In this document: positions 149-40,852 of the stretch, piece by piece
How positions within the stretch are numbered: position 1 is the stretch's first letter
Layout of the letters: each line of letters opens with the position of its first letter
Assembly: GCF_035084215.1 (NCBI RefSeq)
Contig: NC_090333.1
Coordinates: forward strand, 45,942,001 to 46,006,000
Length of the DNA: 64,000 nt
Direction of reading: 5' to 3'
Origin: Heptranchias perlo
Taxonomy: Eukaryota
The notes under the pieces: model-generated
What the model was told of the DNA's origin: nothing
What the model saw: only the letters and a program-made list of their open reading frames with translations
The model's database searches: none
Made by a program: the position numbers and the translations under genes

Positions 149-520
149 CATGGTTCATACTCCTGTGACTCGGCCAATGTTGTCTAACTCATACGTTGCA
201 GGAAAGGATGCCCCAGAGCATGGTACATTGGCGAGACCACGCAGACGCTGCGACAACAGATGAACGGACACCGCGCAACAATCGCCAGACAGGAGGGTTC
301 CCTCCCAGTCGGGGAACACTTCAGCAGTCAAGGACATTCAGCCACCGACCTTCGGGTAAGCGTACTCCAAGGCAGCCTTCGAGACACACGACAACGCAAA
401 ATCGTCAAGCAGAAATTGATAGCCAAGTTCCGCACCCATGAGGACGGCCTCAACCGGGATCTTGGGTTCATGTCACGCTACACGTTACCCCACCAGCGAA
501 CAAAAGTTATCTGTTTTTAA
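149..520 (+). pseudogene. GIY-YIG endonuclease domain of the PLE ORF, with an in-frame TAA at the first motif tyrosine
   Basis: Motifs NVV*LIRC, YIGET, RxxxH, HF and GLN; ORF 260..520 is the distal part. Confidence 0.85.
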
Positions 521-747
521 TATAACGGGTCATTTGCTGTATTTCTCTTCCTTCCGGATGTTTCTATGTTTCTGCCTCTCTCTCTCTGTTTTTTTTTGGT
601 TGTTTGTATATTCGGTGGCCCTGTAGGTAACACCTCTCTGTCTGAACACTTTGATTGCCTTGGCAACGGGCAGTTGGAAAGACTCTCTGTAATCACCAGG
701 TATTGTTCTGTGATTTATAAATGCGAAAGGTTCGAGGATTTCTTGAC

Positions 748-788
748 ATTCACCTGAAGAAGGAGGAAGCCTCCGAAAGCTTGTGATT
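748..788 (+). ncRNA. Minimal type-I hammerhead ribozyme motif (PLE-associated)
   Basis: ATTCAC-CTGAAGA-A-GGAGG-AAG-CCTCC-GAAA-GCTT-GTGATT: CUGANGA and GAAA core boxes, 5-bp stem II, palindromic AGCT stem III, stem I TCAC/GTGA. Confidence 0.75.
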
Positions 789-1045
789 TTCAAATAAAAT
801 TGTTGGACTATAACTTGGTGTTGTAAAATTGTTTACAATTGTGCTTTTATTGAAAAATGCACCATTTTACATGCACCATTTTACCATCACACAACATGAT
901 GTCCTTTACTAAAAAAAAACAAATGCCATCATAACCTAGAAATTACAGTTGTTGGTGTTAGTGAACAAACAATACTTGTTTGTGTGATATTCCTCTGTCT
1001 TTTATTTTAACTGAGGCATTAACAATTTATTTTAAATGGGTTAAA

Positions 1046-5478: not shown

Positions 5479-5516
5479 GTTGGACTATAACTTGGTGTTG
5501 TAAAATTGTTTACAAT
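5479..5516 (+). mobile_element. Extreme 3' terminus of the PLE family (~38 bp)
   Basis: GTTGGACTATAACTTGGTGTTGTAAAATTGTTTACAAT is identical to the end of the copy at ~802-840. Confidence 0.8.
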
Positions 5517-6967: not shown

Positions 6968-7200
6968 TCACCACCACCTGCACGTTCCCATCCAAGTCAC
7001 ACAACATCCTGACTTGGAAATATATCGCCGTTCCTTCATCGTCGCTGGGTCAAAATCCTGGAATTCGCTACCTAATAGCACTGTGGGAGTGTCTTCACCA
7101 CACGGACTGCAGCAGTTCAAGAAGGCGGCTCACCACCATCTTCTCAAGAGCAACTAGGGATGGGCAATAAATGCTGGCCTTGCCAGTGACGCCCACATCT
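6968..7200 (+). mobile_element. 3' tail of a CR1/L2-supergroup LINE, inserted into the Harbinger transposase
   Basis: High similarity to 33512-33742 (GSKSWNSLP...GGGCAATAAATGCTGGCCTTGCCAG). Confidence 0.85.
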
Positions 7201-12689: not shown

Positions 12690-15600
12690 AAATGGGGTGG
12701 GGTGTAAAAAGGAGTGAGGTGGAAAACATAAAATGGGGCGCGGTGTAAAACAAGGCGGGGTGGAAAACATAAAACGAGGCAGGGTGTAAAACGGGGCGGG
12801 GTGTAAAATATAAAACATGGTGAGGTGGAAAACATAAAACGGGGCGGAATGTAAAACGTAAAATGGGGCGGGGTGTAAAATGTAAAATGAGGTGGAGTGT
12901 AAAATTTAAAATGTAAAACGGGGCGGGGTGTAAATTGTAAAACGGGGCGGGGTGTAAAATGTAAAACGAGGTGGAGTATAAAATGTAAAATGTAAAACAG
13001 GGCGGGGTGTAAAATATAAAATGTAAAACAGGGCGGGGTGTAAATTGTAAAACGGGGCGGGGTGTAAAATGTAAAACGAGGTGGAGTATAAAATGTAAAA
13101 TGTAAAACAGGGCGGGGTGTAAAATATAAAATGTAAAACAGGGCGGGGTGTAAAATGTAAAATGTAAAACAGGGCGGGGTGTAAAATGTAAAATGTAAAA
13201 CAGGGCGGGGTGTAAAATATAAAATGTAAAACAGGGCGGGGTGTAAAATATAAAATGTAAAACGGGGCGGGGTGTAAAATATAAAATGTAAAACGGGGCG
13301 GGGTGTAAAATATAAAATGTAAAACGGGGCGGGGTGTAAAATGTAAAACGGGGCGGGGTGTAAAATGTAAAATGTAAAACAGGGCGGGGTGTAAAATGTA
13401 AAATGTAAAACAGGGCGGGGTGTAAAATATAAAATGTAAAACAGGGCGGGGTGTAAAATGTAAAATGTAAAACGGGGCGGGGTGTAAAATATAAAATGTA
13501 AAACAGGGCGGGGTGTAAAATATAAAATGTAAAACAGGGCGGGGTGTAAAATATAAAATGTAAAACAGGGCGGGGTGTAAAATGTAAAATGTAAAACGGG
13601 GCGGGGTGTAAAATATAAAATGTAAAACAGGGCGGGGTGTAAAATATAAAATGTAAAACAGGGCGGGGTGTAAAATGTAAAATGTAAAACAGGGCGGGGT
13701 GTAAAATGTAAAATGTAAAACGGGGCGGGGTGTAAAATATAAAATGTAAAACAGGGCGGGGTGTAAAATGTAAAATGTAAAACGGGGCGGGGTGTAAAAT
13801 ATAAAATGTAAAACAGGGCGGGGTGTAAAATGTAAAATGTAAAACGGGGCGGGGTGTAAAATATAAAATGTAAAACAGGGCGGGGTGTAAAATATAAAAT
13901 GTAAAACAGGGCGGGGTGTAAAATGTAAAATGTAAAACAGGGCGGGGTGTAAAATATAAAATGGGGCGGGGTGTAAAATATAAAATGTAAAACGGGGCGG
14001 GGTGTAAAATATAAAATGTAAAACAGGGCGGGGTGTAAAATATAAAATGTAAAACAGGGCGGGGTGTAAAATATAAAATGTAAAACAGGGCGGGGTGTAA
14101 AATGTAAAACGGGGCGGGGTGTAAAATGTAAAATGTAAAACAGGGCGGGGTGTAAAATGTAAAATGTAAAACGGGGCGGGGTGTAAAATGTAAAATGTAA
14201 AACAGGGCGGGGTGTAAAATATAAAATGTAAAACGGGGCGGGGTGTAAAATGTAAAATGTAAAACGGGGCGGGGTGTAAAATGTAAAACGAGGTGGAGTA
14301 TAAAATGTAAAATGTAAAACAGGGCGGGGTGTAAAATATAAAATGTAAAACAGGGCGGGGTGTAAATTGTAAAACGGGGCGGGGTGTAAAATGTAAAACG
14401 AGGTGGAGTATAAAATGTAAAATGTAAAACAGGGCGGGGTGTAAAATATAAAATGTAAAACAGGGCGGGGTGTAAAATGTAAAATGTAAAACAGGGCGGG
14501 GTGTAAAATGTAAAATGTAAAACAGGGCGGGGTGTAAAATATAAAATGTAAAACGGGGCGGGGTGTAAAATATAAAATGTAAAACAGGGCGGGGTGTAAA
14601 ATATAAAATGTAAAACGGGGCGGGGTGTAAAATATAAAATGTAAAACAGGGCGGGGTGTAAAATATAAAATGTAAAACGGGGCGGGGTGTAAAATATAAA
14701 ATGTAAAACGGGGCGGGGTGTAAAATATAAAATGTAAAACGGGGCGGGGTGTAAAATATAAAATGTAAAACGGGGCGGGGTGTAAAATATAAAATGTAAA
14801 ACGGGGCGGGGTGTAAAATATAAAATGTAAAACGGGGCGGGGTGTAAAATGTAAAACGGGGCGGGGTGTAAAATGTAAAATGTAAAACAGGGCGGGGTGT
14901 AAAATGTAAAATGTAAAACAGGGCGGGGTGTAAAATATAAAATGTAAAACAGGGCGGGGTGTAAAATGTAAAATGTAAAACAGGGCGGGGTGTAAAATAT
15001 AAAATGTAAAACAGGGCGGGGTGTAAAATATAAAATGTAAAACAGGGCGGGGTGTAAAATGTAAAATGTAAAACGGGGCGGGGTGTAAAATATAAAATGT
15101 AAAACAGGGCGGGGTGTAAAATATAAAATGTAAAACAGGGCGGGGTGTAAAATGTAAAATGTAAAACAGGGCGGGGTGTAAAATATAAAATGTAAAACAG
15201 GGCGGGGTGTAAAATGTAAAATGTAAAACGGGGCGGGGTGTAAAATGTAAAATGTAAAACAGGGCGGGGTGTAAAATATAAAATGTAAAACGGGGCGGGG
15301 TGTAAAATGTAAAATGTAAAACAGGGCGGGGTGTAAAATATAAAATGTAAAACGGGGCGGGGTGTAAAATGTAAAATGTAAAACGGGGCGGGGTGTAAAA
15401 TGTAAAATGTAAAACAGGGCGGGGTGTAAAATATAAAATGTAAAACGGGGCGGGGTGTAAAATGTAAAATGTAAAACAGGGCGGGGTGTAAAATATAAAA
15501 TGTAAAACGGGGCGGGGTGTAAAATGTAAAATGTAAAACAGGGCGGGGTGTAAAATATAAAATGTAAAACGGGGCGGGGTGTAAAATGTAAAATGTAAAA

Positions 15601-18600
15601 CAGGGCGGGGTGTAAAATATAAAATGTAAAACGGGGCGGGGTGTAAAATATAAAATGTAAAACGGGGCGGGGTGTAAAATATAAAATGTAAAACGGGGCG
15701 GGGTGTAAAATGTAAAATGTAAAACGGGGCGGGGTGTAAAATGTAAAATGGGGCGGGGTGTAAAATGTAAAATGTAAAACAGGGCGGGGTGTAAAATATA
15801 AAATGTAAAACGGGGCGGGGTGTAAAATATAAAATGTAAAACGGGGCGGGGTGTAAAATGTAAAATGTAAAACGGGGCGGGGTGTAAAATATAAAATGTA
15901 AAACGGGGCGGGGTGTAAAATGTAAAATGTAAAACAGGGCGGGGTGTAAAATGTAAAATGTAAAACGGGGCGGGGTGTAAAATATAAAATGTAAAACGGG
16001 GCGGGGTGTAAAATATAAAATGTAAAACGGGGCGGGGTGTAAAATATAAAATGTAAAACAGGGCGGGGTGTAAAATATAAAATGTAAAACAGGGCGGGGT
16101 GTAAAATATAAAATGTAAAACAGGGCGGGGTGTAAAATATAAAATGTAAAACGGGGCGGGGTGTAAAATATAAAATGTAAAACAGGGCGGGGTGTAAAAT
16201 GTAAAATGTAAAACAGGGCGGGGTGTAAAATATAAAATGTAAAACAGGGCGGGGTGTAAAATGTAAAACAGGGCGGGGTGTAAAATATAAAATGTAAAAC
16301 GGGGCGGGGTGTAAAATGTAAAACAGGGCGGGGTGTAAAATGTAAAATGTAAAACGGGGCGGGGTGTAAAATATAAAATGTAAAACAGGGCGGGGTGTAA
16401 AATGTAAAATGTAAAACAGGGCGGGGTGTAAAATATAAAATGTAAAACGGGGCGGGGTGTAAAATATAAAATGTAAAACAGGGCGGGGTGTAAAATGTAA
16501 AATGTAAAACAGGGCGGGGTGTAAAATATAAAATGTAAAACGGGGCGGGGTGTAAAATATAAAATGTAAAACAGGGCGGGGTGTAAAATATAAAATGTAA
16601 AACGGGGCGGGGTGTAAAATATAAAATGTAAAACGGGGCGGGGTGTAAAATATAAAATGTAAAACAGGGCGGAGTGTAAAATGTAAAATGTAAAACGGGG
16701 CGGGGTGTAAAATATAAAATGTAAAACAGGGCGGGGTGTAAAATGTAAAATGTAAAACGGGGCGGGGTGTAAAATATAAAATGTAAAACGGGGCGGGGTG
16801 TAAAATGTAAAATGTAAAACAGGGCGGGGTGTAAAATGTAAAATGGGGCGGGGTGTAAAATATAAAATGTAAAACGGGGCGGGGTGTAAAATGTAAAATG
16901 GGGCGGGGTGTAAAATGTAAAATGTAAAACGGGGCGGGGTGTAAAATATAAAATGTAAAACGGGGCGGGGTGTAAAATGTAAAATGTAAAACGGGGCGGG
17001 GTGTAAAATATAAAATGTAAAACAGGGCGGGGTGTAAAATATAAAATGTAAAACGGGGCGGGGTGTAAAATGTAAAATGGGGCGGGGTGTAAAATGTAAA
17101 ATGGGGCGGGGTGTAAAATGTAAAATGTAAAACGGGGCGGGGTGTAAAATGTAAAATGTAAAACGGGGCGGGGTGTAAAATATAAAATGTAAAACAGGGC
17201 GGGGTGTAAAATGTAAAATGTAAAACGGGGCGGGGTGTAAAATGTAAAATGGGGCGGGGTGTAAAATATAAAACGGGGCGGGGTGTAAAATGTAAAATGA
17301 GGTGGGGTGTAAAATGTAAAATGGGGCGGGTGTAAAATGTAAAATGAGGTGGGGTGTAAAATATAAAACGGGGCGGGGTGTAAAATGTAAAATGAGGTGG
17401 GGTGTAAAATGTAAAATGAGGTGGGGTGTAAAATGTAAAATGAGGTGGGGTGTAAAATATAAAACGGGGCGGGGTGTAAAATGTAAAATGAGGTGGGGTG
17501 TAAAATGTAAAATGAGGTGGGGTGTAAAATGTAAAATGAGGTGGGGTGTAAAATATAAAACGGGGCGGGGTGTAAAATGTAAAATGAGGTGGGGTGTAAA
17601 ATGTAAAATGGGGTGGGGTGTAAAATGTAAAATGGGGCGGGGTGTAAAATGTAAAATGAGGTGGGGTGTAAAATGTAAAATGGGGTGGGGTGTAAAATAT
17701 AAAACGGGGCGGGGTGTAAAATGTAAAATGAGGTGGGGTGTAAAATGTAAAATGGGGTGGGGTGTAAAATATAAAACGGGGCGGGGTGTAAAATGTAAAA
17801 TGAGGTGGGGTGTAAAATGTAAAATGGGGTGGGGTGTAAAATGTAAAATGGGGCGGGTGTAAAATGTAAAATGGGGCGGGGTGTAAAATGTAAAATGGGG
17901 CGGGTGTAAAATGTAAAACGGGGCGGGTGTAAAATGTAAAATGAGGTGGGGTGTAAAATGTAAAATGAGGTGGGGTGTAAAATGTAAAATGAGGTGGGGT
18001 GTAAAATGTAAAATGAGGTGGGGTGTAAAATGTAAAACGGGGCGGGGTGTAAAATATAAAACGGGGCGGGGTGTAAAATGTAAAATGAGGTGGGGTGTAA
18101 AATGTAAAATGAGGTGGGGTGTAAAATGTAAAATGAGGTGGGGTGTAAAATATAAAACGGGGCGGGGTGTAAAATGTAAAATGGGGTGGGGTGTAAAATG
18201 TAAAATGGGGCGGGGTGTAAAATATAAAACGGGGCGGGGTGTAAAATGTAAAATGAGGTGGGGTGTAAAATGTAAAATGAGGTGGGGTGTAAAATGTAAA
18301 ATGAGGTGGGGTGTAAAATATAAAACGGGGCGGGGTGTAAAATGTAAAATGGGGTGGGGTGTAAAATGTAAAATGAGGTGGGGTGTAAAATGTAAAATGG
18401 GGCGGGGTGTAAAATGTAAAATGAGGTGGGGTGTAAAATGTAAAATGAGGTGGGGTGTAAAATGTAAAATGGGGTGGGGTGTAAAATGTAAAATGGGGTG
18501 GGGTGTAAAATATAAAACGGGGCGGGGTGTAAAATGTAAAATGAGGTGGGGTGTAAAATGTAAAATGAGGTGGGGTGTAAAATGTAAAATGAGGTGGGGT

Positions 18601-18780
18601 GTAAAATGTAAAATGAGGTGGGGTGTAAAATGTAAAATGGGGCGGGTGTAAAATGTAAAATGAGGTGGGGTGTAAAATGTAAAATGGGGCGGGTGTAAAA
18701 TGTAAAACGGGGCGGGTGTAAAATGTAAAACGGGGCGGGTGTAAAATGTAAAACGGGGCGGGTGTAAAATGTAAAACGGG
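12690..18780. repeat. G-rich minisatellite/satellite of about 200 units: 31-bp C[AG]GGGCGGGG-TGTAAAA-T[AG]TAAAA-TGTAAAA (left) and 24/23-bp units (right)
   Basis: Directly visible tandem periodicity, built from a 10-nt G-box plus 2-3 copies of the heptamer TGTAAAA; degenerate at the left edge. Confidence 0.99.
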
Positions 18781-18835
18781 AGCCAAATTTCAATCAGCTG
18801 TTTTTCGCCTGGCACTAAAAGTTAAAATTACTCCC
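18781..18835. mobile_element. Right terminal arm of a palindromic MITE, continuous with the satellite
   Basis: CTGTTTTTCGCCTGGCACTAAAAGTTAAAATTACTCCC matches both arms of the MITE at 25973-26107. Confidence 0.75.
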
Positions 18836-27830: not shown

Positions 27831-29029
27831 TGCATTTCTAAATGCTCAATACTCAATGCCCTCCTAGATGATGAGTTTCAGGACTGGGGGCATCCAGGGT
27901 CTGGATGAAATAAAATATTACTTTCTGAGCACCATCAATTCATAGAGTCATTTGAAAATAAGAACCACTTTACAAGAACTGACGGTTGTTGTGAAGGAGT
28001 CCACTAACTATATCTATGCAATGGTGTCTTTATAGAACTTCAATCTACCTTGGAGCATGCAGCACTTCCTGGTTTATCTGCAGCAGAGCACCCCCACCCC
28101 CACCCCCACTTAATAGATGCACCACCAAGCTTTTCATCACAGCAGGGGGTGATGTAAGAGAAGGAGGTTGTTTACAACAAAGCCATGGGCCTCTCATCCT
28201 TATCTGGTAATCTGTCCAAAGAACTGGGATTCATAAAATATTGGAGTGTTGCATCCAACATATGATATACTATAAAAGCAAATGGTATATGGAGCGGATT
28301 TGAAACAATTGAAGCAAATATTGGAGATGTCAAGACTATTGAGAATGTCTGTGTATAAAATGAAAGGGCCAATCTCTGCACGGAAAGCCATAAACAAAGA
28401 TAATAAAGAGACCTCTCACATCCATGGTTGAGATCGCTGCTCATGGTTTTAACTACATCAAAGAGACACAGCCCCAGTAACAAATGGAATGATTGGACAA
28501 AAAGAACGACAATTTCTCCCAAATCCCCCAATTGGTCCAAAACAATATAAAAAGAAGATTTTGCGATGAAATCTCTCTCTCTCTCTCTCACTGCAGTCAA
28601 AGAGTTACAAGAAAGTTCAACAACAGGAAGAAGAAAAAGCCTAAAGTGCTGAAAAGCTGATCACCCTTCAGGCCTTGATGAAAAATCCTTGGTTTAAGGT
28701 TATATATATTAATGATTTACCTGATGTGTGTATGAATTGTTGAATCATTAAATAATAATGTTGCGAATTACTAAGTGTATAACAGGTAGAGTAAGGTAGA
28801 ATAAGTATGTACGGTTTGATTTTGCTTTATGAATGTTCGTATGGATTATAACAGCATTAAATAATTGCTTTTAATTAACGAAACTACAGTGAGGATGATT
28901 TTCTTTGCTTGACTACTGTCCAGGTTCAAAACTCACTGGAAAATCAGGTTTTTCCTACAAAGTGAAATTGTTCTCTATTAGACACTTGTCCATCAGTGGA
29001 ATGTTAGCTTCAACATGCCTATGGTATGT

Positions 29030-29418
29030 CACGTCATGTCACGCTACACGTTACCCCACCAGCGAACAAATGTTATCTGTTTTTAACACAACGGGTCATT
29101 TGCTGTCTTTTCGATGTTTCTGCCTCTCTCTCTTTTTTTTTGGTGGTTTGTATATTCGGGGGATCTGTAGGTAACACCTGTCTGTCTGCACACTGATTGC
29201 CTTGGCAACGGGCAGTTGAAAACACTGTCTGTAATCACCAAGTATTGTTCTGTGATTTATAAATGCGAAGAGTTCGAGGATTTCATTTCCACATTCACCT
29301 GAGGAAGGAGGAAGCCTCCGAAAGCTTGTGAATTTCAAATAAAATTGCTGGACTATAACTTGGTGTTGTAAAATTGTTTACAATTGTCAACCCCAGTCCA
29401 TCACCGGCATCTCCACAT
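29030..29418 (+). mobile_element. PLE pseudo-LTR / 3' fragment with a 16-bp flanking duplication
   Basis: Near-copy of ~470-842; CATGCCTATGGTATGT occurs at 29014-29029 and 29419-29434. Confidence 0.92.
29293..29333 (+). ncRNA. Minimal hammerhead ribozyme motif (best-formed copy)
   Basis: ATTCAC-CTGAGGA-A-GGAGG-AAG-CCTCC-GAAA-GCTT-GTGAAT with a perfect 6-bp stem I. Confidence 0.78.
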
Positions 29419-29779
29419 CATGCCTATGGTATGTTTAATTGTATCCTTGTGCCTTATTCTATTTTCTTTCAGTTAAAGTTCCATTGTAAAAAGCCAGCTA
29501 GCTCAATCCTACTGCTGATTAACCATAGGCCTAATTCTGGGGTTTTCTGACTGCTCCCATGCTGATTGCTGACCTGTGTGTATTACCCACTTCACCATCT
29601 AGCTCTCCTACTGCACAATGACAATGAGGCGGAGTGCTCCTGTTGTGCAACATGTTGTACATATGAAACACTTCTGTACAGAGTGGTAGGGATATTGGGT
29701 AACATCACTCAGATATCAGAAACCAGTTACAAAGCAACATAACCTCTTGATTGGAGAATTATGCGTAGCGAGAGGTCAG

Positions 29780-33000: not shown

Positions 33001-33129
33001 AGTTGGAGTTAATTGGATGCACTCTCCAGTCTGTGGCTACAAGAGCAGGTCAGAGGTTGGGTATTCTGCAGCGAGTGACTCACCTCCTGACTCCCCAAAG
33101 CCTTTCCACCATCTACAAGGTACAAGTCA

Positions 33130-33229
33130 TTTCCACACCGTTCACCTGAGGAAGGAGGAAGCCTCCGAAAGCTTGTGGAATTTAAAATAAATTTGTTGGA
33201 CTATAACTTGGTGTTGTAAAATTGTTTAC
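33130..33229 (+). mobile_element. 100-bp mini PLE insertion with an 8-bp TSD
   Basis: ACAAGTCA at 33122-33129 and 33230-33237; removing the insert and one copy restores the host LINE frame (IYK.QVRSVMEY). Confidence 0.92.
33141..33180 (+). ncRNA. Minimal hammerhead ribozyme motif
   Basis: TTCAC-CTGAGGA-A-GGAGG-AAG-CCTCC-GAAA-GCTT-GTGGAA. Confidence 0.72.
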
Positions 33230-34139
33230 ACAAGTCAGGAGTGTGATGGAATACTCTCCACTTGCCTGGATAAGTGCAGCTCCAACAACACTCAAGAAGT
33301 TCGACACCATCCAGGACAAAGCAGCCCGCTTGATTGGCACCCCATCCACCACCCTAAACATTCACTCCCTTCACCACCGGTGCACTGTGGCTGCAGTGTG
33401 TACCATCCACAGGATGCACTGCAGCAACTCGCCAAGGCTTCTTCGACAGCACCTTCCAAACCCGCGACCTCTACCACCTAGAAGGACAAGAGCAGCAGGC
33501 ACATGGGAACAACACCACCTGCACGTTCCCCTCCAAGTCACACACCATCCCGACTTGGAAATATATCGCCGTTCCTTCATCGTCGCTGGGTCAAAATCCT
33601 GGAACTCCCTTCCTAACAGCACTGTGGGAGAACCTTCACCACACGGACTGCAGCGGTTCAAGAAGGCGGCTCACCACCACCCTCTGAAGGGCAATTAGGG
33701 GTGGGCAATAAATGCCGGCCTTGCCAGCGACGCCCACATCCCATGAACGAATAAAAAAAAAGTCGGGGTCACTGGATAACAATAAGGTTGGGAAATGTGG
33801 TTGATTTTTCTCCCCTAATGCATCGCTGCTTTGTCAACAAATTCAGAAAACTGGTATTTTGGATCCATCAATAAAAAATGACTGCGATATCTTCATGGTG
33901 TTGAATAAATTGAGAATTTATCAAGGAATCTTTGGCATAGTACGTGTGGTGGCAAGTTGTATTCCTCAAAATTTATTATAATTTTATGCAAGTTTTATAT
34001 ATGCACCTTATGTTAATATTTATAGAAATTAAATATGAAAATCTTTTAGCCTAAATGACCTGAGTTCTCAAACCAACTGCACGATTGTCAGAATTATGAT
34101 GAAACTAAAATCGGCAGAGCAGTAGAAACTGAGGACATG

Positions 34140-37920: not shown

Positions 37921-38692
37921 CATCACAGGAGGCAGCTCCCAGTAGTCACAACCCACCTACTCCCGACGTCCTCTTGGAACAACATCCGGAACTCAACTCC
38001 CAGCTCCCAGATCTCGACCGACATGTCAGATGCAGAGGCCGTGCTTGGCATGTCATATGAGGACCGTAAATCACGTCATTAACAGGGTCCTCTACGACAT
38101 TAATTACCAGCCCTAAATGGCTGTGGTGGGAATAATTCATATTAACGTCGTAAATCCAGCAATTTCATGATCGCCATTAAGTTCAATGGAGAGCCTCGCA
38201 GCAAGAACGGACTTTCATCGGCTTTGGTGAGGCTAACGGTGGAGCGGTGCAAATTGTCCCCCAATTCCCAGAGGATCGGATTGCTTTTACTCCGCAAATT
38301 GCTGGATTTTTTTACAAATTAGTAACGGCGAGCGCCGTTAATACATCATTCTAATGATGAGTCTTCCTAGCAATTTCTGGTCCATTAACAATATTCTCCA
38401 ACAAAAACAAAATAAGATAGCACTGTCGAGATAGGATGAGGTGGGGAGAGAGAAAGACAGGAAACAGCAGGTGTGCATAATAATGAGCAGTGACAAAACA
38501 GCTTTGACTGATTAAATTGCAATTAAGTAAATTGCACAATGTAACAACAACAATGCATCAAGTTGAAACCAGGTGGCAAGGGCTAAACTGGCAGTAATTT
38601 GTGCCAAGCAAGTAAAACTAGAACAGGCCATCTGATCACAATCAAACCAGGCACCATATAATTCCTATAATAAACACTTCCCAGGAGCTGAG

Positions 38693-40852
38693 TTGACAAA
38701 ACCTACCGAGTCAGTAAAGCTTCATATATTAGTCCGGTATATAATTCCATCCAGTAGGTTGTCTTTAGTAAATAAAATATTGTCTACCAGAAATCTTTTT
38801 CTGCTTGTAGGAAAATCCGCATCGGAGCAATGGGAGTCTTTCAGAAGGGAGATTGAGACCATACAATGGCAACATGTTCCCGTAAAGGTCAAGGGTGGTT
38901 CCAAGAACTCCAGGGAACCTTGGATGTCAGGGGATATACGAGAATGGATTAGGAAAAAAAGGAGGGCTTTTGGCAGATACAAAAGGCTAAAGACGGAGGA
39001 AGCCCTAGAGGAGTACAAAAAGTGCAGGGGGATACTTAAAAAAGAAATTGGGAGATCAAGGAGGGGCCATGAAATAACACTGGCGAGCAAAATAAAGGAA
39101 AATCCTAAGATGTTTTATAAGTATATTAAGGGTAAGAGGATAGCTAGGGAAAAAATAGGGCCCATTAGGGACAAAAATGGCAATCTGTGTGTGGAGCCGG
39201 CAGATGTAGGAGGGGTTCTAAATGAATTTTTTGCATCTGTTTTCACTATGGAGAAGGACGATGTAGACATAGAAATACGGCAGGGGGACTGTGATATACT
39301 CAAACATATTAACATTGAGCGGGAGGAGGTATTGGCGGTTTTAGCAGGCCTAAAAATGGATAAATCCCCAGGCCCGGACGAAATGTATCCCAGGCTACTG
39401 TGTGAGGCAAAGGAGGAGATTGCGGGGGCTCTAACACATATATTCAGAACCTCTCTGGCCACAGGGGATGTGCCAGAGGACTGGAGAACCGCTAATGTAA
39501 TACCATTATTCAAGAAGGGGAGTAGGGAAAAACCGGGGAACTACAGGCCAGTGAGCCTAACATCAGTGGTAGGAAAATTATTGGAAAAAATTCTGAAGGA
39601 CAAAATTAGTCTCCACTTGGAGAAGCAAGGATTAATCAGGGATAGTCAACATGGCTTTGTCAAGGGAAGATCATGTCTGACTAATTTGATTGAATTTTTT
39701 GAGGTGGTGACTAGGAGTGTGGATGAGGGTAACGCAGTGGATGTGGTATACATGGATTTCAGTAAGGCCTTCGATAAAGTCCCCCACAGGAGACTGGTCA
39801 AGAAGGTACGAGCCCATGGAATCCAGGGTGCCTTGGCACTTTGGATACAAAACTGGCTTAGTGGCAGAAGGCAGAGGGTGATGGTCGAAGGTTGTTTTTG
39901 TGACTGGAAGCCTGTGGCCAGTGGGGTACCACAGGGATCGGTGCTGGGTCCCTTGCTGTTTGTGGTCTACATTAATGACTTGGATATGAATGTAAAAGGT
40001 ATGATCAGTAAGTTCGCTGATGATACAAGGATTGGTAGGGTGGTAAATAGCGAGGAGGATAGCCTCAGTCTGCAGGACGATATAGATGGGTTGGTCAGAT
40101 GGGCGGAACAGTGGCAAATGGAATTTAACCCGGAAAAGTGCGAGGTGATGCACTTTGGAGGGACTAACAAGGCAAGGGAATACACAATGAATGGGAGGAC
40201 CCTAGGCAAGACAGAGGGTCAGAGGGATCTTGGTGTGCAAGTTCACAGATCCCTGAAGGCGGCGGAACAGGTAGATAAGGTGGTAAAGAAGGCATATGGG
40301 ATACTTGCCTTTATTAGCCGAGGCATAGAATATAAGAGCAGGGAGGTTATGATGGAGCTGTATAAAACACTGGTTAGGCCACAGCTGGAGTACTGTGTGC
40401 AGTTCTGGTCGCCACACTACAGGAAGGCTGTGATCGCTTTGGAGAGGGTGCAGAGGAGATTCACCAGGATGTTACCAGGGCTGGAGCGCTTCAGCTATGA
40501 AGAGAGACTGGGAAGATTGGGTTTGTTTTCCTTGGAGCAGAGGAGGCTGAGGGGGGACATGATTGAGGTGTACAAAATTATGAGGGGCACAGATAGGATG
40601 GATACTAAGGAGCTTTTTCCCTTCGTTGAGGGTTCTATAACAAGGGGACATAGATTCAAGGTAAAAGGCGGGAGGTTTAGAGGGGATTTGAGAAAGAACT
40701 TTTTCACCCAGAGGGTGGTTGGAGTCTGGAACTCACTGTCTGAAAGGGTTGTGGAGGCAGGAACCCTCACAACATTCAAGAAGCATTTGGATGAGCACTT
40801 GAAATGCCATAGCATACAAGGCTACGGACCAAATGCTGGAATATGGGATTAG
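38693..40852 (+). CDS. Uninterrupted CR1 ORF2 fragment (RT plus C-terminus, no endonuclease); the first ~35 codons come from the flank
   Basis: KSPGPD, NYRPVSLTS, QHGF, DFSKAFDKV, GVPQGSVLGP, FADD and WNSL with no stops over ~680 codons. Confidence 0.9.
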   Translation: MTKPTESVKLHILVRYIIPSSRLSLVNKILSTRNLFLLVGKSASEQWESFRREIETIQWQHVPVKVKGGSKNSREPWMSGDIREWIRKKRRAFGRYKRLKTEEALEEYKKCRGILKKEIGRSRRGHEITLASKIKENPKMFYKYIKGKRIAREKIGPIRDKNGNLCVEPADVGGVLNEFFASVFTMEKDDVDIEIRQGDCDILKHINIEREEVLAVLAGLKMDKSPGPDEMYPRLLCEAKEEIAGALTHIFRTSLATGDVPEDWRTANVIPLFKKGSREKPGNYRPVSLTSVVGKLLEKILKDKISLHLEKQGLIRDSQHGFVKGRSCLTNLIEFFEVVTRSVDEGNAVDVVYMDFSKAFDKVPHRRLVKKVRAHGIQGALALWIQNWLSGRRQRVMVEGCFCDWKPVASGVPQGSVLGPLLFVVYINDLDMNVKGMISKFADDTRIGRVVNSEEDSLSLQDDIDGLVRWAEQWQMEFNPEKCEVMHFGGTNKAREYTMNGRTLGKTEGQRDLGVQVHRSLKAAEQVDKVVKKAYGILAFISRGIEYKSREVMMELYKTLVRPQLEYCVQFWSPHYRKAVIALERVQRRFTRMLPGLERFSYEERLGRLGLFSLEQRRLRGDMIEVYKIMRGTDRMDTKELFPFVEGSITRGHRFKVKGGRFRGDLRKNFFTQRVVGVWNSLSERVVEAGTLTTFKKHLDEHLKCHSIQGYGPNAGIWD

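Follow-up and report, generated by a model that had tools for sequence, protein, structure and literature searches.

A minimal type I hammerhead motif at the 3′ terminus of a Penelope-like element in the shark Heptranchias perlo

The 64,000-nt stretch of H. perlo DNA analysed here (the window) carries four motifs that, as judged by sequence comparison, are genuine instances of the minimal type I hammerhead ribozyme (min-HHR) fold, placed in sense orientation at the 3′ terminus of a Penelope-like element (PLE). In the reading that we consider probable, they sit in the terminal repeat at the 3′ end of a shark PLE, likely of the Neptune type, whose hammerhead would be a weak cutter 3′ of U782, dependent on two copies pairing via AGCU or on the element's protein aiding its folding, the window copies themselves being likely inactive and copied from uncut RNA. 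In this way a motif on record from 40 animal species is extended to a shark element, and this young and very abundant shark family offers good material for testing the role of hammerheads in PLEs.

Fold and core of the four motifs

The CUGANGA core was located by pattern search of the window at 754 (+), 1776 (–), 29299 (+), and 33146 (+), which bears out the four copies of one fold reported at these places by the original prediction, and all four passed a descriptor demanding both stems and N-U-H. In copy 1 (750–786, + strand), stem I is formed by CAC (751–753) and GUG (783–785), reaching 4 bp when U750-A786 is counted and ending at a mismatch (749/787). It encloses the core CUGAAGA (754–760), an extra A761, stem II (GGAGG 762–766 with CCUCC 770–774), and, 3′ of stem II, GAAA (775–778), G779, C780, U16.1 (781) and H17, which is U782. 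The predicted cut after GAAAGCUU, with U as the cleavage nucleotide, was upheld and falls at 782/783. From copy 1 to copy 4, stem I measured 4, 4, 6, and 5 bp; the lengths of stem II were 5, 4, 5, and 5 bp.

The loose pattern CTGANGA-N5-30-GAAA gave 10 matches in the window against a shuffle mean of 4.45; when both stems and N-U-H were demanded, 4 of the 10 survived, exactly copies 1–4, the other six being rejected by the stem tests. In 100 dinucleotide shuffles the same descriptor, which follows the published min-HHR consensus and was composed after the motif had been seen, found a mean of 0.02 and a maximum of 1. The four copies are mutually 87–94% identical, paralogues of one repeat end, and so count as one motif.

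The min-HHR core CUGANGA...GAAA...U-H was present in all four window copies and in two distant relatives, the loci L003 and L005 described below. In these six sequences the catalytic set was invariant, N7 varied among A, G, and U, and H17 varied between U and A, while a single unpaired A between A9 and 10.1, together with the G10.1-C11.1 pair, occurred in every one. Moreover, 15.2-16.2 was G-C in all six, giving a palindromic AGCU and no loop 3, and this invariance means that helix III offers no covariation. The stem III palindrome AAGCUU had been proposed; its letters are there, but helix III is AGCU (778–781), with 4 bp rather than 6, because A14 and U17 are core bases in the standard numbering. 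The 6-bp version was rejected on this ground, and A17 in L005 breaks AAGCUU yet keeps AGCU.

The features of a canonical type I hammerhead (an Rfam model match, a 6-bp stem I with a loop 1–loop 2 contact, and a helix III of its own) were not seen in these motifs, and the conserved part of stem I in the six-sequence alignment is only 3–4 bp. The suggested search with hammerhead models and descriptors had a divided outcome: the minimal descriptor found the four copies, but an Rfam 15 scan of the window at E ≤ 5 returned five weak matches, none to a hammerhead family. Single-strand folding z-scores of four 56-mers were weak (–2.2 to 0.0).

The host element

The window opens on the C-terminal end of a Penelope-like ORF (2–517, + strand, recognized by translation), which runs off the left end of the window. 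It comprises a CX4CxxC linker (CHGNLCKTC, 68–94) followed by a GIY-YIG endonuclease (WYIG...GLNRD) and is broken by two in-frame stops (125–127 and 185–187). In the protein comparison, 46 of 89 longer candidates matched it, the best three (91–94% identical) being named Heptranchias perlo and the next coming from other sharks. One protein of this set, P0002, joins the same endonuclease (EN) to a reverse transcriptase (RT) that scores above the cut-off for RVT_1 and has a DKG motif; by tblastn, its residues 483–642 matched 2–481 at 90.6%, the sole match in the window. The EN+ PLE architecture, with RT and C-terminal GIY-YIG in one ORF, is therefore documented through P0002, which is 91% identical, the RT lying outside the window; a Pfam search of the window's EN piece gave no match.

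The hammerhead of copy 1 lies in sense orientation, about 270 nt 3′ of where the endonuclease coding sequence ends, and a terminal location in sense to the ORF was likewise found in L003 and L005. The claim of a minimal type I hammerhead in a Penelope-like terminus is sustained by this position after the ORF end and by the match to the published consensus. The host element is likely a Neptune-type PLE, an assignment resting on the linker motif: a CX2-5CxxC linker between RT and EN occurs in Neptune and Nematis, Poseidon being without it (PMC8557442), and only Neptune and Poseidon were found in vertebrates according to the consulted part of a preprint (Li et al. 2026, bioRxiv 10.64898/2026.07.22.740005).

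Copies and insertions in the window

Copy 1 stands in a pLTR-type 3′ terminal repeat region (468–842, + strand) that is 87% identical over 378 nt to 29034–29387 and ends in a small hairpin (820–839) recognized by folding and family comparison. Copy 2 (1691–1790, – strand) is a 5′-truncated piece of about 100 nt with an approximate 5′ boundary, at which no target duplication was found; its hammerhead occupies 1780–1744, with a predicted cut at 1748/1747, and an A-U pair of stem II is replaced by G-C through changes on both sides. A 20-nt inverted match between 980–999 and 1783–1802 (19/20, E 0.006) adjoins its 5′ end. A 38-nt terminal fragment of this family without hammerhead (5479–5516, + strand) is equivalent to 802–839.

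Copy 3 is a 389-nt insertion (29030–29418, + strand) that contains the pLTR-type region, the hammerhead (29293–29333, predicted cut 29327/29328), and a 31-nt tail (29388–29418), flanked by a 16-bp target duplication (29014–29029 and 29419–29434). This clean insertion begins at the last ORF codons, with a few duplicated bases at the 5′ junction. Letters resembling the tail are also found after position 842 in at least 128 contigs of one sequence run (X1). Copy 4, again 5′-truncated and about 100 nt long (33129–33229, + strand), carries its hammerhead at 33141–33179 with a predicted cut at 33174/33175, begins 17 nt 5′ of the core, and is flanked at 33122 and 33230 by a target duplication of 7–8 bp. 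Its surroundings (33095–33740) are presumably a LINE reverse-transcriptase fragment, to go by the look of the translation, and 33510–33740 recurs at 6969–7199 (91%).

Four of the five element ends lie at positions equivalent to 836–842, directly past the hairpin, and one lies after the tail. The predicted cut site is intact in all four copies, the 3′ ends lying 54–60 nt beyond it (4 of 5 ends) or, in copy 3, 91 nt beyond it, and none of the five family fragments starts or ends at the predicted cut. The 5′ truncation and optional 30–40 nt tail of PLEs are both represented (copies of 38–389 nt, a 31-nt tail on one of five ends), and the hammerhead-bearing units in head-to-tail tandem that define non-LTR retrozymes were not found among the window copies, which are single and dispersed. 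The copies occur in both orientations, and those next to each other on one strand are separated by 3.8 and 28.5 kb; lacking close same-strand partners, they are best read as dead and are probably inactive leftovers. In all four of them and in L005, but not in L003, an AATAAA (793–798, + strand, in copy 1) stands 11 nt past the predicted cut, a possible poly(A) signal.

Distant relatives and conservation of the motif

Seven loci (L001–L007) were selected by protein similarity alone, and in two of them, L003 and L005 (63% and 51% identical in the endonuclease piece), a hammerhead was found 3′ of the ORF on the sense strand, against 0.002 motif loci per trial in shuffled downstream regions. The other five showed no motif, their sequence running out 33–703 nt past the coding match, in L006 roughly 90 nt beyond the stop as read by eye; three of them, L001, L002, and L004, are relatives of L005 that break off short of the place where its motif lies. 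Since all five end too early, they were counted neither for nor against.

Over the 325 nt past the ORF in the window (518–842), 751–834 aligned to L003 (E 2e-11), 749–786 aligned to L005 (E 1.5e-6), and nothing else aligned. The hammerhead segment had z-scores of 8.6 (L003) and 9.2 (L005), compared with –0.9 to 3.6 and 0.1 to 1.6, respectively, for upstream segments, the adjoining 50 nt being weak in L003 (z 3.6). The downstream 57 nt reached 5.7 in L003 and 1.0 in L005, so that the hammerhead is not the sole conserved block. In contigs from three further organisms the alignment mainly begins at stem I.

Across the six sequences, 89.2% of cells were paired and four pairs showed two-sided change, slid controls giving 29–50%; a shuffle control is one that related sequences surpass without difficulty. 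Pair 3 of stem II, for example, is A-U, G-C, or C-G, and RNAalifold also recovers stems I and II. Both stems appear to covary with compensatory changes, which is supportive rather than a formal test because the six sequences represent only three families. Among the 40 listed of 93 rows of within-family variants, 3 variants fell in 751–785 (35 nt) and 32 in 440–750 (311 nt), with no overall excess of conservation; none was on the 11 core bases among the rows listed, where about one was expected. The excess conservation at issue in the original prediction is consequently seen against the upstream flank in L003 and L005 and in the covarying stems, but not as an overall excess in the within-family variant rows listed. 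At N7 (758) the usual alternative letter in the contigs is C, and three window copies have G.

A metagenome scan with a single protein gave 192 stretches and no confirmed case, and three scans of viral collections gave no match. L007 1–1304 is a Penelope-like RT-endonuclease fragment, 62% identical to the shark protein, in a bacterial symbiont assembly, where it is most likely contamination by host DNA; three pattern matches from the genome behind it (L008–L010) were set aside, being by eye without hammerhead stems and without the family 3′ end.

Comparison with published systems

The consensus of Cervera and De la Peña 2014 (PMC4209133) includes a base between 9 and 10.1, G10.1-C11.1, and a palindromic 15.2-16.2, and by our own count U17 occurs in 24 of its 56 motifs. 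The one-base insert after A9, the palindrome, and U17, flagged as peculiar in the original prediction, are all present, but since they match this published consensus each is typical rather than peculiar. The shark motifs share with those min-HHRs CUGANGA-H, G10.1-C11.1, GAAA-N-N-U-H, the lack of loop 3, a short stem I, and dispersed single copies; the shark stem II of 4–5 bp is at the short end, and no structural difference was found in the consulted parts of that paper. GAAA-G-C-U-U occurs in 2 of the 56 (Chrysemys and Philodina; our count), in the turtle motif of Fig. S3 after CUGAAGAA. That paper also reports min-HHRs from fish elements of the Xena, Poseidon, and Neptune types, none of the 56 motifs is from a cartilaginous fish, and our literature search found no paper showing a min-HHR motif in cartilaginous fishes. 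By sequence, the shark motif is a further member of the published min-HHR/PLE pairing, with nothing new in the fold.

Similarly, according to the accessible text of PMC8557442, the Neptune and Nematis EN+ PLEs share with the shark element an RT with DKG, CX2-5CxxC, a C-terminal GIY-YIG, 5′ truncation, an optional tail, and a hammerhead near the 3′ end; unlike them, the two shark copies with clear junctions show no microsatellite target. The Poseidon element PAc of Anolis carolinensis (PMC11167929) is alike in having a hammerhead upstream of two 3′ ends, a 30–40 nt tail apart, and an AC-rich stem-loop region, and differs in belonging to a clade without the CX2-5CxxC linker and in a hammerhead that overlaps the ORF start. 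Non-LTR retrozymes (PMC7229834; Li et al. 2026), reported in one chondrichthyan in the latter preprint, likewise carry a type I hammerhead within terminal sequence derived from PLEs, but the shark copies are dispersed single pieces and not head-to-tail tandem units. The small PLE hammerheads of Lünse et al. 2017 (via PMC6765202), with a very short palindromic stem III and dimer cleavage, were likened by description only.

Proposed activity and rival explanations

If the preferred reading is right, transcripts of the active element would have the tandem form pLTR-ORF-pLTR, two motifs would swap the 3′ strands of stem I and share the 4-bp helix III, and G12 and G8 would catalyse a cut that would be a slow side or late step, releasing the RNA from read-through transcripts or controlling dosage. 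Reverse transcription would begin downstream, at the terminal hairpin or the tail end, and proceed from there across the uncut motif. Energy modelling placed the swapped dimer 0.9 kcal/mol above two separate monomers and about 9 kcal/mol above the best cofold; a form with A14 and U17 paired, which would be inactive, lay 2.6 kcal/mol below the swapped dimer. Energies as unfavourable as these fit low unaided activity. In published work, the Schistosoma min-HHR was inactive as monomer and of low activity as dimer (PMC4209133), one of nine Xenopus dimers cleaved (Li et al. 2026), and the anole Poseidon hammerhead cleaved only with protein (Frangieh 2024, PMC11167929), a result that may not carry over to the shark element. 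All 24 listed sequence runs are contigs, in which RNA ends do not show; with this limit, no loose end among the 24 listed of 440 fell at 783. Loose ends before stem I were considered as RNA starts and rejected, as they at least partly resemble subfamily variants.

What the fold does for the element is described as unclear by Craig 2021 (PMC8557442), and several other accounts of it were weighed. In the model of Cervera and De la Peña, two cuts would release a unit-length RNA that circularizes, and reverse transcription of the circle would restore the site and build a partial tandem. The deep conservation of every catalytic base suits such obligatory processing, related retrozymes do form circles (PMC7229834), and a religated circle would also yield copies spanning the site, so that the intact copies are compatible with it. 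It nevertheless appears unlikely: anole hammerhead mutants inserted normally in vitro, with unprocessed RNA as the main substrate and no RNA-seq reads ending at the cut (PMC11167929), Naiad and the majority of Chlamys elements proliferate with no canonical hammerhead, and the window fragments neither begin nor end at the cut. Catalytic silence in this lineage, with the fold kept as a protein binding site, a part of the pLTR promoter, or a 3′ end signal, is less probable again. It would agree with the disfavoured active dimer, the CUU site, a stem I of 3–6 bp, a loop 2 of 3–5 nt, and the AATAAA and second conserved block that follow the motif, and the authors of the motif left non-cleaving roles possible (PMC4209133). 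Against it, the invariant part is precisely the catalytic set, N7 and H17 vary as hammerhead rules allow, and the anole motif cleaves, with rescue of C3G by G8C (C3G/G8C; PMC11167929).

Adoption of one or more dispersed copies by the host for cutting a host transcript has very little to recommend it. The core is intact in all four copies and the family is present in runs guessed to be RNA (X5, whose RNA status is a guess), but intact cores are expected anyway in a family as young as this (87–94% identity), both orientations occur at the spacing given above, and the copies are typical truncated inserts. Chance resemblance in repeat DNA is the least credible account of all. Paralogy of the copies, the lack of an Rfam match, and the weak folding z-scores would permit it, but distant relatives selected by protein keep the motif, its place, and its strand with compensatory changes, and L003 and L005 refute it. 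The weakly cutting min-HHR thus remains the probable reading.

A candidate 3′ RNA structure at the tail

The conserved segment beyond the hammerhead may include a further RNA structure, for which a candidate was found in copy 3 at 29349–29407 (+ strand), with equivalent regions in L003 (1027–1088) and L005 (1394–1447), in three families only. Helix A pairs 29349–29354 with 29395–29400 (UGGACU with AGUCCA in the tail); it was paired in 18 of 18 cells across the three tailed sequences, with a U-A to G-C change in L005. Helix B (29360–29365 with 29402–29407) crosses helix A in pseudoknot order and was paired in 87.5% of cells as aligned, and a hairpin (29368–29381) lies between the two helices. 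The hairpin at 820–839 shows one two-sided change in L003. An equally strong crossed helix pair arose in 5 of 500 shuffles of the window and 13 of 500 of L003, under criteria chosen post hoc, and a single helix of such strength in 29–41% of shuffles; L005 failed the strict crossed-helix test. The model allows that the tail possibly pairs back on the upstream terminus, perhaps as a pseudoknot.

The two start sites of the Anolis Poseidon element in an AC-rich stem-loop parallel the shark ends after the hairpin and after the tail (PMC11167929). No description of a pseudoknot at a PLE 3′ end was found in the literature, the paper checked among those listed concerning a frameshift pseudoknot and the fold in Fig. 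S2C of Frangieh standing outside the comparison. A bolder proposal, which we put forward only tentatively, is that the hammerhead could form the leading half of an extended, conserved RNA module, in which tail helix A, perhaps crossed by helix B, would enclose the hairpin, one reverse-transcription start lying inside the enclosed loop and one just past the knot. If true, this would provide a telomerase-RNA-like template boundary for the telomerase-sister enzyme and explain the Penelope tail, and protein binding at the 3′ module could switch the hammerhead on. Such a 3′ structure would matter more than the hammerhead, as a sequence-level explanation of both the tail and the internal reverse-transcription start.

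Other sequence in the window

A tandem array of about 6 kb (approximately 12700–18800) with mixed 24- and 31-nt units, probably a minisatellite, has on the minus strand reading frames that run very long without a stop. Moreover, a 738-aa stop-free frame (38636–40852, + strand) is endonuclease/reverse-transcriptase-like, and several fragments lie in 48666–56000; by their appearance, the frame and these fragments resemble CR1-type LINEs.
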